From an uncultured bacterium (GTDB lineage: Bacteria; Oederibacteriota; PGYV01; Palsa-1178): DNA of 64,000 bases. A program made the translations under genes and the position numbers. The notes under the pieces were generated by a model. That model made no database searches. It worked only from the letters and a program-made list of their open reading frames with translations, and was not told the origin of the DNA. Within the stretch, counting starts at the first letter, position 1, and every line of letters starts with the position of its first letter. Where the stretch lies: contig CALAOR010000089.1 of assembly GCA_937889595.1 (NCBI GenBank), positions 28,548 through 92,547 of the forward strand, in the 5' to 3' direction. Below, piece by piece: positions 4,270 through 55,540 of this stretch.

Positions 4270-4448
4270 GAAGAGTATCAGAGACTGTCGGAAAAGCCCG
4301 CAAGGGGCGGGCAGCATGATATGCTGCCCCTACAAATGCAGGCAGATATTTGTAGGGGCCGAATATTATTCGGCCCACAACGATGGTTTTTAGAGGTTTT
4401 TCGACAGTATCTAAATAGAACGATAACAAACTAAAACGCGAGGTTACG

Positions 4449-12240: not shown

Positions 12241-12375
12241 TTTGATTGTTCTCTGTTCTGTGTTCTATGTTCTATGTTGGAGAACCAAAATAGAGAACAA
12301 ATAACAAAGAACAGAGAACAGAGAACAGAGAACAAAGAACAAAGAACAAAGAACAAAGAACAAATTGAACTCATA
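12241..12375. repeat. Inverted array of tandem heptamer repeats: (GTTCTRT)n on the left, (AGAACAR)n on the right, inside the atp operon between atpG and atpD
   Basis: The left arm reads tgttctctgttctgtgttctatgttctatg. The right arm reads agaacagagaacagagaacagagaacaaagaacaaagaacaaagaacaaagaacaa. Confidence 0.8.
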
Positions 12376-14265: not shown

Positions 14266-14298
14266 AGCCCCGGTGTAAAAGCCGGGGTTTTGTTTTTT
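14266..14298 (+). terminator. Rho-independent terminator of the atp operon
   Basis: The hairpin gccccggtgtaaaagccgggg is followed by a T-run. Confidence 0.7.
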
Positions 14299-14370
14299 GT
14301 AGAGCGGCTGCTTGCTGCCGCTCATCGTTGTGTAACCCCGCGTCAGAGAGGCAGCAAGCAGCCTCTCTAC
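14299..14370. repeat. Palindromic REP/MITE-like element, copy 1
   Basis: The sequence gtagagcggctgcttgctgccgctc...gagaggcagcaagcagcctctctac has a near-reverse-complement second copy at 47153..47300. Confidence 0.75.
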
Positions 14371-23935: not shown

Positions 23936-24211
23936 GCAGATTGAGCAGGTTGAACAGTTGAGCAGGTTGACGAACTAATCTAAACAAACTCAACTGTTTG
24001 CCGCACCACCACGCAATCTGCGGTCAATCTGCTCAACCTGCTCAATCTGTTCAGGTTTTGGTTTCAAAACGTAGGGGGTGATAATTCAAGTTTTCCATAT
24101 GTGTTGAGCGTCAAAACTCACTGAATTTTATAATCTAAAACTCATTCTTCCGGTTTCATTCCGGCTTGTTTTTTGTCCTCTCCACCTGCTCAATCTGTTC
24201 AACTGTTCGAC
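23936..24211. repeat. Array of direct and inverted ~12-bp TGAGCAGGTTGA / TGCTCAA(C/T)CTG motifs at the tRNA-proximal edge of the AT-rich island
   Basis: The left arm spans 23936-23972 and the imperfect inverse arm 24012-24056. A further copy lies at 24183-24211. Confidence 0.6.
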
Positions 24212-26177: not shown

Positions 26178-26253
26178 CGTTATGGGACAAGGTTAATCCA
26201 AATAGACAAAAGTTCAAGTTTTATCCATCAAAACAGACAGGCAGACCGACCGA

Positions 26254-26311
26254 CCAACCAACCAACCAACCAACCAACCAACCAACCAACCAACCAACCA
26301 ACCAACCAACA
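26254..26311. repeat. Tetranucleotide microsatellite, (CCAA)~14
   Basis: ccaaccaacc... runs uninterrupted for about 56 nt, preceded by (gacc)3. Confidence 0.9.
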
Positions 26312-26437
26312 CTCGAACTTTAACCTTGCCTTTGTTATTTGTGGTGGCAAAATATGAATAGGATGAGAAATAAAGGGGAAAAATTAATAATCAACTCACA
26401 CCGGCTCACCCATCACATATTCGCTGGAGGCTTATAA

Positions 26438-34040: not shown

Positions 34041-34084
34041 AAAGGCCGGAAATTTTCCAAAAGAAAATTCCGGCCTTTTTTTTT
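34041..34084 (+). terminator. Rho-independent terminator after the pilin gene
   Basis: The hairpin ggccggaattttcc...ggaaaattccggcc is followed by a T9 run. Confidence 0.7.
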
Positions 34085-34270
34085 GATGGTTGTTTGTTTT
34101 TCGGAGCTTGCGCGACGAAAAACAATTACAACCATCAATCCCCGGTCAAGTCCTCGCCTACTGGCGAGGACGAGCGGGATAATATAATAGTACGGGTGGG
34201 TTGTCTTGTTTTGCCTTGCCTTGCCTTGCTTGAGCGAGGAAAAACAAACAACCATCAATCCCCGCAAAAA
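34083..34270. repeat. Structured intergenic repeat element, copy 1: two hairpins plus a gggataatataatag tail
   Basis: The hairpins ttgatggttgtttgttttt...aaaaacaattacaaccatcaa and gtcctcgcctactggcgaggac are homologous to 55297..55405. The differences between copies are compensatory. Confidence 0.7.
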
Positions 34271-34317
34271 TCCGGAATAAGCGGTAAAAATGGGAAAGTC
34301 CACACAGGAGGCATGCC

Positions 34318-35046
34318 ATCACCGTTATAGCAACGGCTTTTTTTATTTTTATATATGGTCTTTGTATTGGAAGTTTCCTGAATGTATGCATTTACAGGAT
34401 ACCTGCCGGGAAATCAATAATTAACCCGCCATCATCATGTCCCAAATGCAAGAAGCCAATTAAAGCCTATGATAATATACCACTTTTAAGTTTTTTAATG
34501 CTTAAGGGCCGCTGCAGGAACTGTTCTGCGAAAATTTCGCTGAGATACCCGTTTATTGAATTCATCACGGGATTGCTGTTTGTTATCTTTTTTCTTAAGT
34601 TTGGACTTGAAAAAATCTATTTTTTTTATATAATAATGGTAGGATATATGGTAACACTGGCGTTCATTGATATTGACAAAAGAATAGTTCCGGACGGCAT
34701 TGTCCTGTGTTTAACCGTTACAGGGATGGTTTTTGGAATATTTGGCGTAAATCCAGGGGTCAGTATTTTTGAAGGTATTATCGGCGCTGTTGCCGGAGGA
34801 TTAATAATGCTTGTCCTGTATATTTTCTCCAACGGCAAGATAGGCGAAGGTGATATAAAACTGATTGCCGCAATGGGGCTTTGTACCGGGTTTAAGGAAA
34901 TAACAGGCATAATAACTTACGCTTTCATAATTGGCGGTGCTTACGCGTTTTTATTGCTCGCGCGGGGCAGACATAAGAAAACTGACGCTGTAGCTTTTGT
35001 GCCATTCATAGCGGCCGCGTTTATTTTAAGGGCATTGATACAATAA
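34318..35046 (+). CDS. pilD: Prepilin peptidase PilD (A24 family), with no canonical start codon for the conserved N-terminus
   Basis: The N-terminal Zn-finger domain (CPKC...CRNC) and the membrane domain are in frame from 34318. In-frame ATG 34498 would truncate the conserved N-terminus. ATG 34313 is out of frame (+1) and only 1 nt after aggagg. Confidence 0.65.
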   Translation: MTVIATAFFIFIYGLCIGSFLNVCIYRIPAGKSIINPPSSCPKCKKPIKAYDNIPLLSFLMLKGRCRNCSAKISLRYPFIEFITGLLFVIFFLKFGLEKIYFFYIIMVGYMVTLAFIDIDKRIVPDGIVLCLTVTGMVFGIFGVNPGVSIFEGIIGAVAGGLIMLVLYIFSNGKIGEGDIKLIAAMGLCTGFKEITGIITYAFIIGGAYAFLLLARGRHKKTDAVAFVPFIAAAFILRALIQ

Positions 35047-40461: not shown

Positions 40462-40480
40462 GGAATAAATCCCCAACATA

Positions 40481-40516
40481 AAAAACGCCGCGGCTTCAAA
40501 CCGCGGCGTTTTTTAT
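40481..40516 (+). terminator. Rho-independent terminator after pilQ
   Basis: The hairpin aacgccgcgg...ccgcggcgtt is followed by a T-run. Confidence 0.7.
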
Positions 40517-40693
40517 GCCGGTTGTTTGCTTTGCGGCACGCCCTGCACCACTCGCTTTGCTCGGGTACGGGGCACGCGGCGAAAAGTAATTACATCCGAC
40601 AGGACCCGTTAAAGTCCAGGCGCTGAAGCGGCCGGACTTTAGAGGGATAAATACCAATGCCGCGTTTCTTTGGCGCAGGAAAAAGAGGAAAAA

Positions 40694-46276: not shown

Positions 46277-46362
46277 AAAGTCAAAATCTTGCAGATAGTA
46301 GATAGTAGAAGGTCAAAAATTAAAAACAGTATTTAAGCTGCAAGTCAGGGAAAGCAGTAACA

Positions 46363-46621: not shown

Positions 46622-46882
46622 ATGCCCGGAAAAAACGTTACTTTTACCATGAAAGTGGACAAAGACGTCAGGGATCTGCTGAAAGATTTCTGCAAGTCCA
46701 GGGGCTTTTTGATGAAATCTTTTATTGAAAAAGCCATAGTTGACGAGATAGAAAAGGAAGAGCTGAAGGAAGACCTGCTCGCAATACAGAATTATGAAAA
46801 GTACGAGAAGGAAACTACGATTCCGCTGGATAAGGTGGCTAAAGAACTGGGCCTATACCGCGGGAAAAAGAAACATGCATAA
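46622..46882 (+). CDS. Type II antitoxin (ribbon-helix-helix / RelB-like)
   Basis: An 86-aa protein whose stop overlaps the start of the RelE/ParE toxin gene. Confidence 0.55.
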   Translation: MPGKNVTFTMKVDKDVRDLLKDFCKSRGFLMKSFIEKAIVDEIEKEELKEDLLAIQNYEKYEKETTIPLDKVAKELGLYRGKKKHA

Positions 46883-47147
46883 GATTGAATTGTCAGCCAC
46901 GGCTTATAAATGGCTTAAAACCCCAAAAGCGCCGGCCGTTGACTTGACAGCCATTAAAGATAAAATCCTGTCCCTGTCCGAAGATCCAAGGCCGGCCGGA
47001 TGCGAGAAGATAAAGGGTATGACAGGAAGCTATTTCAGGGTAAGGCAGGGTAATTACAGGATCGTCTATGAGGTTGATGATAAAACAAACAGGATGGTCA
47101 TAGTCGCCATAGGTCACAGGCGGGAGATTTACAGAAAAAAGAAGTAA
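46875..47147 (+). CDS. RelE/ParE family type II toxin
   Basis: The motif YRIVYEVDDKTNRMVIVAIGHRREIYRK is typical of PF05016. The start was chosen at ATG 46875. Confidence 0.7.
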   Translation: MHKIELSATAYKWLKTPKAPAVDLTAIKDKILSLSEDPRPAGCEKIKGMTGSYFRVRQGNYRIVYEVDDKTNRMVIVAIGHRREIYRKKK

Positions 47148-47152
47148 ATCCT

Positions 47153-47300
47153 GTAGAGAGGCTGCTTGCTGCCTCTCTGACGCGGGGGTTAAACCGTAGA
47201 AGCCGTTATGAACGGTCAACTGCCGCTAAGCCGTAGGGTTTTAAACCGCAGGAACCGTTTCATAAGGCCAACGATGAGCGGCAGCAAGCAGCCGCTCTAC
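47153..47300. repeat. Palindromic REP/MITE-like element, copy 2: reverse orientation of 14299..14370 with a ~78-bp internal insertion
   Basis: The sequence is gtagagaggctgcttgctgcctctctgacgcggg...aacgatgagcggcagcaagcagccgctctac. Confidence 0.75.
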
Positions 47301-47856: not shown

Positions 47857-47952
47857 AGTCAATAAAGTCAAAAAATTGAGAGAGTAGAAAGTAGATAGTT
47901 GATCTTGTTGTGTAGTTCTTCTACTCTCAACTTTCTACTCTCTCCTCTCTCC

Positions 47953-47994: not shown

Positions 47995-48068
<74 letters not shown>

Positions 48069-48197
48069 TCCGATCAGAGAGTAGATAGGAGAGAGTAGAT
48101 AGGTGATAAGTCCCATCTGCCATCGCCTGTCTGCTATTGTTTGTCTACTATCTACTTTCTACTCTCTACTATCTCCAGAATTTGCATCAGCAAATTC

Positions 48198-48286
48198 TGG
48201 TGCCGGGAACCGGACTTGAACCGGTACGGAGGGTGAACTCCGGAGGATTTTAAGTCCTCTGCGTCTACCAATTTCGCCATCCCGGC
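48198..48286 (-). tRNA. tRNA-Leu (anticodon UAA), type II with a long variable arm
   Basis: Reverse complement is GCCGGGATGGCGAAATTGGTAGACGCAGAGGACTTAAAATCCTC...GGTTCAAGTCCGGTTCCCGGCACCA. Confidence 0.75.
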
Positions 48287-55235: not shown

Positions 55236-55260
55236 TTATTCAATAACAATTTATGACATA

Positions 55261-55295
55261 AGGGCCCTCTCTTTAATTGGAGAGGGCCTTTTCTT
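55261..55295 (+). terminator. Rho-independent terminator after the ABC permease genes
   Basis: The hairpin agggccctctctttaattggagagggcct is followed by a T-run. Confidence 0.65.
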
Positions 55296-55296
55296 T

Positions 55297-55405
55297 TGAT
55301 GACTGTTTGCTTTGAGGAGCCTCGGCGACGAAAAGCAATTACAGTCATCAATCCCCGGTCAAGTCCCCGCCTACTGGCGGGGACGAGCGGGATAATATAA
55401 TAGTC
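55297..55405. repeat. Structured intergenic repeat element, copy 2 (homologous to 34083..34270)
   Basis: The hairpins ttgatgactgtttgc...caattacagtcatcaa and gtccccgcctactggcggggac are followed by cgagcgggataatataatagt. Confidence 0.7.
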
Positions 55406-55540
55406 AAAAGCGCGAGATAGTAGATAGTAGAAAAGCAAATGCAAATGTAGAGGCGGGACTTAAGCCCGCCCAACGCAACGTGGCAAGGCAAGGCGGGCGC
55501 GCTTTCGTCGCGCCCCTACGCAGGCAAAAAAAGAGGGAAA

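Follow-up and report, generated by a model that had tools for sequence, protein, structure and literature searches.

A structured, dispersed repeat of about 110 nt behind intrinsic terminators in a genome assigned to Candidatus Goldbacteria

The subject of this report is an element of about 110 nt in a 64-kb stretch of DNA from an uncultured bacterium (contig CALAOR010000089.1), hereafter the window. Its PilM homologues are labelled Candidatus Goldbacteria or Goldiibacteriota, and on this basis the source organism is assigned to that group. The element is probably a new, lineage-specific, non-coding and non-autonomous dispersed structured repeat which has spread by insertion behind intrinsic, i.e., Rho-independent, terminators. 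Two complete copies are present in the window, behind the terminators of a pilin gene and of an ABC-permease gene. Related loci included, at least four independent sites and at least two related genomes were counted. Positions without a locus prefix are numbered along the whole window, and all copies in the window lie on the + strand.

Copy 1 occupies positions 34083-34192 and copy 2 positions 55296-55405. A sequence-only reading had proposed a structured element in two copies, and the sequences which it quoted were found at these places, both on the + strand. Their identity over 120 nt is 88%. Whether folded as RNA or as single-stranded DNA (ssDNA), they share one architecture: hairpin 1, a 2-nt linker, hairpin 2 and an A/T-rich tail. 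Hairpin 1 comprises 56 nt with 18-21 pairs and a conserved 2-nt TT bulge in its 3' arm. Its stem is long and A/T-rich, and its apex tolerates insertions. Hairpin 2, which is dissimilar to hairpin 1, is a G+C-rich 9-bp stem with the loop TACT, nested within an outer CCCG/CGGG stem. In copy 1 the fold places hairpin 1 at 34083..34138 (TTGATGGTTGTTTGTTTTTCGG ... CGAAAAACAA(TT)ACAACCATCAA; 21 pairs, TT bulged), and fold and pair counts place hairpin 2 at 34141..34178 (outer CCCG/CGGG, inner 9-bp GTCCTCGCC/GGCGAGGAC, loop TACT). The tail ATAATATAATAGTA at 34179..34192 is like a -10 hexamer without a -35 box at the right spacing. In copy 2 hairpin 1 covers 55296-55351 and hairpin 2 55354-55391, with the tail thereafter. 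The covariance model (CM) R1 scores copy 1 at 137 bits and copy 2 at 140 bits.

Both copies fold strongly, with about -60 kcal/mol as RNA and -35 to -38 kcal/mol as ssDNA. The z-score is about -9, and none of 200 shuffled sequences folds equally well. Fourteen positions differ between copies 1 and 2. Eight of these make up four exactly compensatory pairs (copy 1 to copy 2: G7-C50 to A-T, T8-A49 to C-G, T15-A40 to C-G, T72-A85 to C-G). The sequence-only reading had claimed exact compensation in both hairpins, and this was borne out with four pairs and no broken one; the pair T15-A40 was missing from its list. Two further differences, at positions 19-20, form two apical pairs in copy 1 only; three fall into the apical loop and one beyond the tail. 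Not a single modelled pair is broken. When 14 substitutions were placed randomly in 2,000,000 trials, at least four compensatory pairs arose in 32 trials (P about 1.6e-5) and zero broken pairs in 186. Thus, the compensatory excess is real and far beyond chance.

Further copies exist outside the window. An exact-pattern scan of metagenome contigs with ATCAATCCCCGGTCAAGTCC yielded one true copy, in locus L004, and two chance matches in coding DNA (L003, L005). The true copy (L004:5632-5741, contig OCZT010000003.1) is 94-96% identical to copy 2 by blastn, and its hairpin 2, GTCCCAGCC/GGCTGGGAC, supplies a fifth compensatory pair. Orthologous spacers were retrieved via PilM, KpsF and OppB homologues. 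The pilin-pilD spacer of the closest relative (97% PilM identity; GCA_003167475.1, ENA contigs) holds another copy, L008:8939-9103, which scores 67 bits. This copy carries a 59-nt nested hairpin inserted at the apex. Three of its modelled pairs deviate from the standard, and two more are missing since the 3' arm of hairpin 1 has lost 2 nt.

Among copies 1, 2 and L004 all stem pairs are Watson-Crick without any G-U; five pairs have changed on both sides and none on one side. When all four full copies are considered, 97.7% of the pair cells are standard and the three unpaired cells all belong to L008; five pairs have changed on both sides, and one-sided changes that keep the pair amount to zero. 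Non-compensatory stem changes in further copies, which the sequence-only reading had named as grounds for its refutation, are found in L008 with its three non-standard pairs, its deletion and its nested insertion, but not in copies 1, 2 and L004; with copy 3 heavily diverged as well, that reading is in part contradicted by its own standard. The tail of the element, described there as invariant, is identical only between copies 1 and 2. L004 has GGGATAACTTAACATG at this place, copy 3 has GGGATAAATACCAAT, and L008 differs, too.

A local duplication of copy 1, said to extend over 34083..34270, proved to be partial. What follows copy 1 at 34199..34264 (+), designated copy 1b, is a hairpin-1-like stem GGGTTGTCTTGTTTT ... 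AAAAACAAACAACC plus the linker CATCAATCCCCG (ATCAATCCCCG); hairpin 2 and tail are lacking and CM R1 assigns it only 9.9 bits. A more diverged member, copy 3 (40513..40679, +), sits behind the terminator of the pilQ secretin gene (40477..40517, +; terminator scan). Its parts come in the same order as in copies 1 and 2: GGTTGTTTGCTTTGCGG ... CGGCGAAAAGTAATTACA with an apex about 32 nt longer, then CCCGTTAAAGTCC ... GGACTTT, then GGGATAAATA. The scores are weak, 14 bits with CM R1 (partial) and E = 0.006 with blastn. Membership of copy 3 in the family is probable, not proven.

Filled sites were compared with empty ones. In relatives with 87%, 82% and 80% PilM identity, about 12-35 nt separate the pilin terminator from the pilD ribosome-binding site, and about 11-20 nt separate the pilQ terminator from that of aroC. 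The element is absent from both spacers. In L011 the pilQ terminator, AACGCCGCGG...CCGCGGCGTTTTT, is near-identical to that of the window and the aroC ribosome-binding site comes directly after it. Therefore, copy 3 represents some 168 nt inserted immediately behind the T-run. L014 and L035 have diverged terminators at the same pilQ position, again with the aroC ribosome-binding site directly after. At the copy-2 site, relatives with 93% and 90% OppB identity (L031, L033) have kept the terminator, and the element is absent. These empty orthologous spacers show that the element is an insertion and not a conserved locus.

All five copies start 0-3 nt from a terminator T-run and point in the direction of the flanking genes. 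Copy 1 begins inside the T-run of the pilin terminator (34044..34084, +), which was read from the sequence as a stem GGCCGGAAATTTTC/GAAAATTCCGGCC followed by a T9 run; a reverse-strand cmsearch alignment also displays the pairing of this stem. The T-run of the ABC-permease terminator (55260..55297, +; terminator scan) likewise extends into copy 2. Two relatives retain the terminator of the L004 site and carry other inserts behind it, namely a perfect 18-bp hairpin in L028 and, in L026, an 'agatagt'-type motif together with a G+C-rich hairpin and (AAAGAAC)n. At the copy-2 site of an 83% relative there is a 140-nt near-perfect hairpin (L034:9826-9965; -72.7 kcal/mol, z -8.3). It looks unrelated to the element. 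The words which it has in common with the apex of hairpin 1 are only GAGGAGCC and GGCGACGAA..GCAAT, arranged differently, and homology beyond these words could not be demonstrated; the hairpin may have arisen by inverted duplication or be distantly related to the element. A GTAG-type REP doublet, too, stands directly after a terminator at 14298. Because relatives carry differing hairpin inserts behind the same terminator, the slot after a terminator is a hotspot for hairpin-bearing inserts in this lineage.

The spacing between genes bears on expression. The distance from terminator to ribosome-binding site is 11-12 nt in the pilQ-aroC spacer of L011 and in the pilin-pilD spacer of L035; such sites, behind pilQ or the pilin gene, are L011:15255-15295, L035:12610-12655 and L035:6395-6425. 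Such gaps leave no room for a promoter; therefore pilD and aroC must be expressed by read-through. The terminator-like hairpins of L011 and L035, which by their position are internal to operons, must accordingly be read through, or be attenuators or stabilisers. Since the element sits between terminator and ribosome-binding site in a read-through operon, it would probably be transcribed passively, as a part of the polycistronic operon mRNA.

The sequence of events which we propose is as follows. The element would be inserted repeatedly, and oriented with transcription, into the first bases behind the T-run that ends a Rho-independent terminator. The folded hairpins, as ssDNA or RNA, would be recognised by a trans-acting enzyme encoded elsewhere while the element is copied. 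Lineages which are still spreading would keep perfect pairing, leading to compensatory differences between subfamilies, and resident copies would be free to decay after insertion. Compensation between subfamilies combined with decay of residents is what one expects if the hairpins serve propagation rather than a host function. The copies fit an age series. Copy 2 and L004 would be recent, for they are about 95% alike and the 93% relative has no insertion at the copy-2 site. Copy 1 and L008 would be older, common to the window and the 97% relative and decaying in the latter, and copy 3, the most diverged, would be old.

Several observations weigh against this interpretation. In the sequence surveyed, about 82 kb for this genome plus about 450 kb for relatives, the full copies seen number only 4-5. 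The search for more copies, which the sequence-only reading had suggested, brought to light L004, L008, copy 3 and the partial copy 1b. The extra flanking sequence of this genome, about 18 kb, contains no copy, and the roughly 450 kb from relatives contain none beyond L008. Run with filters off on the window ends and the relatives' loci, CM R1 detected no copy beyond L008 and L010, in agreement with a sensitive blastn over 533 kb. A scan of genome contigs with the tail GAGCGGGATAATATAATAG gave two matches in metagenome-assembled genomes (MAGs) of Clostridia, and the match L007 is due to chance. Two scans of viral contigs returned chance matches or none, and BLAST against plasmids and phages gave no match to the element. 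Neither a transposase, a reverse transcriptase nor a master element was found among ten open reading frames (ORFs) scanned, and neither a target-site duplication nor a terminal inverted repeat defines the ends of the element. The left boundary is ambiguous, as it is merged with the T-run.

The preference for site and orientation has to be viewed with similar reserve. The + strand has a positive GC skew and carries about 90% of the window genes; it is probably the leading strand. With nearly all genes on this strand, co-orientation at four of four independent sites is a weak statistic. Further, spacers between terminator and ribosome-binding site in relatives measure only 11-45 nt. Because the native spacers are this short, a part of the site preference could be survivorship, not targeting. 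Finally, the L008 copy could have entered the same hotspot independently and would then not be an ortholog of copy 1.

One may go a step further and speculate, at modest odds, that the repeat is a miniature terminator-homing element. An enzyme encoded elsewhere in Goldbacteria genomes would read the terminator hairpin and the T-tract, in the manner of group IIC introns, and insert a 110-nt two-hairpin cargo in one direction. The post-terminator slot would then be a dedicated landing pad in the phylum, as the different inserts at L004, L026 and L028, and at copy 2 and L034, would illustrate.

What produced the covariation is a separate question. Conceivably, though we would not wager on it, the compensatory pattern was made without any selection by template switching from arm to arm or by repair within the hairpin. 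Adjacent dinucleotides are swapped and mirrored on both arms (GT/AC to AC/GT), and the change GA to TC at positions 19-20 of copy 1 adds two pairs at once. That every stem pair of copies 1, 2 and L004 is Watson-Crick and none is G-U would be expected of a symmetry established at the level of DNA, and the region contains many other long perfect hairpins with low-complexity arms. Against a simple perfecting of the palindrome, neither the conserved TT bulge nor the internal loops within hairpin 2 have been corrected in any copy, and L008 retains its mismatches. This explanation addresses the origin of the covariation alone and is compatible with a dispersed, inserting repeat.

Long intergenic hairpins whose arms consist of low-complexity short repeats were noted in the window at 12241-12372, 23940-24060, 47880-47950, 48075-48180 and 26237-26316 (e.g., GTTCTCTGTTCTGTGTTC ... 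GAACAGAGAACAGAGAAC). Others flank the two tRNA genes at 47997-48286. An (ACCA)n tract was noted as well. The (AAAGAAC)n motif also occurs after a terminator in a relative (L026:9170-9225).

Rather unlikely, in our estimation, is a module selected by the host to act in cis on the read-through mRNA or on the DNA, e.g., as a barrier at the 3' end against exonucleases, an insulator against read-through, a processing signal, or a site for a protein or gyrase. Roles of this kind have been assigned to REPs (PMC3333891) and were proposed for REP/BIME sequences of enterobacteria. The element is always in sense orientation between a terminator and the next gene, and the 11-12-nt gaps of the relatives, with no room for a promoter, place it in a read-through transcript. 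By parsimony, pair 15/40 may have been compensated in place, from C-G (copy 2, L004) via C.A (L008) to T-A (copy 1). However, the same spacers work without the element in relatives of 80-93% identity, and in the 97% relative pairs of the copy are broken and 59 nt have been inserted into it. Nor are the downstream genes related in function: pilD-pilMNOPQ, aroC-aroK-aroB, oppBCDF, and a Zn-ribbon gene with kpsF.

A mobile, outward-facing promoter is improbable. The tail GGGATAATATAAT would supply a -10 box and restore transcription of the downstream gene; copies 1 and 2 do have a perfect TATAAT at their 3' end which faces this gene, and they are inserted ahead of a gene otherwise reliant on read-through. 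Yet a -35 box at 16-18 nt is missing, a promoter scan finds none, and the -10 box is not conserved, with differing tails in L004 and copy 3. The tail was accordingly rejected as a promoter.

An RNA gene is the least probable of these explanations. A trans-acting small RNA, or a family of sibling small RNAs, with its own promoter would agree with the strong conserved structure (z about -9) and with several similar intergenic copies as in some sibling families, but no + strand sigma-70-like promoter is predicted although clear TTGACA-17-TATAAT promoters exist elsewhere in the genome, neither hairpin is followed by a U-tract, Rfam has no match, and insertions are polymorphic among close relatives.

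The database and signal searches were as follows. Rfam 15 at gathering level identified only three tRNAs in the whole window. Lax scans of both loci (E up to 10) yielded only generic hairpin matches, all under the gathering scores, and no group II intron. Consensus scans of the copies and of the sequence on either side of them detected neither a + strand sigma-70 promoter nor a U-tract behind hairpin 1 or 2. The sequence-only reading had left the choice between a non-coding RNA and a REP-type repeat. A dispersed, multi-copy, structured intergenic repeat is what remains of it; the half which concerned a non-coding RNA found no support, given the missing Rfam match, sigma-70 promoter and U-tract and the absence from the orthologous spacers of relatives. 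It had further taken exact compensation as the footprint of selection on the secondary structure of RNA or ssDNA. The excess is there, but compensatory change is reported to be common in the hairpins of mobile REPINs (PMC3116915) and does not by itself single out an RNA gene. Further to this point, all stem pairs of copies 1, 2 and L004 are Watson-Crick without G-U, therefore the pattern contains no signal specific for RNA or for one strand.

Coding was examined as well. ORFs of 78 aa and 98 aa across copy 1 were rejected as genes; they are unconserved in copy 2 and have no Pfam match. The 98-aa ORF is a spurious placement by the gene caller. A terminator at 34322-34336 was also discarded, since the pilD coding frame, with its true start at about 34318, runs across it.

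This start deserves a remark of its own. The pilD frame extends upstream of the listed ATG 34498 to about 34318, where AGGAGG is followed, 6 nt on, by ATC (window 34306-34500). A nearby ATG, at 34313, opens another frame which ends after five codons. The relatives that were compared (L008:9215-9260, L011:9210-9240, L014:9240-9270) are without an in-frame ATG, with ATT or TTG as candidates. In this lineage, pilD therefore seems to start at a non-canonical codon. The neighbouring pilin region differs by about 826 nt between the assemblies of the 97% relative (L008:7616-8891 vs L009:8442-8891). The gene tables list one pilin gene for the NCBI MAG and a tandem of two for the ENA contig, where the second is called as two short ORFs. 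This suggests a duplication or variation, or a difference in assembly.

How does the element relate to known families? It resembles REP, BIME and REPIN sequences, which are mobilised by RAYT (TnpA-REP) Y1 transposases, as a short, extragenic, multi-copy hairpin at the 3' ends of genes, clustered with other repeats in mosaic spacers, with variability between strains and compensatory stems. REPs are imperfect palindromes of 20-40 nt, and their defining feature is a GTAG tetranucleotide 5' of the foot of the stem (PMC3333891), or CTAC where the unit is inverted. Reading of the flanks on either strand revealed no GTAG or CTAC at the foot of hairpin 1 or 2. Unlike REPINs, in which one REP is present twice in inverted orientation and makes a single long hairpin, the element is not an inverted doublet; it is longer, asymmetric and fixed in orientation. 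Hairpins 1 and 2 share no sequence, and the arms of hairpin 1 are not palindromic themselves. A cognate RAYT, i.e., a Y1 HUH transposase whose gene usually has the repeats at its flanks, did not show up among ten unannotated ORFs, none of which matched Y1_Tnp.

Genuine REP/REPIN-like doublets with GTAG do exist in this lineage, separate from the element. A scan for GTAG plus a stem yielded only these other elements, which were located in the window at 4333-4376, 14299-14370, 47153-47300 and 55447-55519; similar doublets were seen in a relative at L034:11062-11140 and L034:16671-16730. Their layout is a GTAG head, a G+C-rich hairpin, a spacer, and an inverted unit ending in CTAC (e.g., GTAGAGCGGCTGCTTGCTGCCGCTC ... 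GAGAGGCAGCAAGCAGCCTCTCTAC). The stems vary between loci. The doublet at 14299 is right after a terminator, that at 55447 is 40 nt after copy 2. Such doublets imply a RAYT-type system in these Goldbacteria; a RAYT gene was not among the ten ORFs scanned. A gene for a ParE-family toxin (46794-47147; Pfam PF05016, E = 1.7e-10) adjoins the upstream side of the doublet 47153-47300, and the ORF before it may be the antitoxin. A short motif, AGATAGTAGATAGTAGA, recurs in spacers behind gene ends or terminators (55411-55432, 46296-46312, L026:9064-9100), with related versions GAGAGTAGATAGG near tRNAs; it may be another small repeat family.

With MITEs, the ERIC elements of enterobacteria and the Correia-type elements of Neisseria the repeat has in common the size class of about 100-150 bp, the non-coding, intergenic nature, co-transcription with its neighbours, and long hairpins. 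It differs at the ends. The 5' end TTGATGGTTG bears no relation to the 3' end when the latter is read as its reverse complement, ACTATTATAT; with TTGATGG... at the 5' side and ...TAATAGT at the 3' side there are no terminal inverted repeats, and only hairpin 1 resembles inverted repeats. When target-site duplications were sought by comparing copy 3 with L011 and L035 and copy 2 with L031, no repeated flank emerged, although the right flanks are too diverged for certainty.

PATEs of the IS200/IS605 type also have neither inverted termini nor target duplications, and they display subterminal hairpins, strand- and orientation-specific insertion 3' of a short target, a fixed tetra- or pentanucleotide, and a dependence on ssDNA. 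All copies of the element follow a T-run and four of five begin with TTGAT, which is compatible with such a mode, and the strand on which the element is found has a positive GC skew. Against membership, its hairpins are dissimilar, whereas the left and right hairpins of PATEs are alike and one TnpA binds both. Neither TnpA nor TnpB was found near the element (ten ORFs). An integron attC site was dismissed: the flanks are core operons, and no RYYYAAC/GTTRRRY core sites could be read from the sequence.

The choice of site is reminiscent of group IIC introns, which use the terminator DNA hairpin as a recognition determinant (PMC3898094) and insert just after the terminator stem-loop and T-run in sense orientation. 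All five copies are located in this way, directly after an intrinsic terminator and in sense. Unlike these introns, the element has 110 nt vs >600 nt, no reverse transcriptase ORF, and a 5' end which is not GUGYG. It starts with TTGATGG, has no ORF at all, and shows no domain V/VI match at E up to 10. As the Rfam scans also contained nothing of the kind, a group II intron fragment was rejected. In behaviour, REP/BIME/REPIN and MITE-type repeats come closest to the element, and in site choice group IIC introns do.

The element would add a structured repeat family from the candidate phylum Goldbacteria. It also calls for caution: perfect compensation between two copies alone is no proof of an RNA gene. 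Within the known families it is an informative exception, as it fails the defining tests for REPs and MITEs and shares targeting of the terminator flank with group IIC introns. Homing to terminators, if true, would be a targeting mechanism undescribed for REP, MITE or miniature elements derived from insertion sequences. If the targeting is real, there would be an enzyme which reads terminator hairpins, and this would be relevant to the way in which mobile DNA reaches safe sites when a genome is compact.

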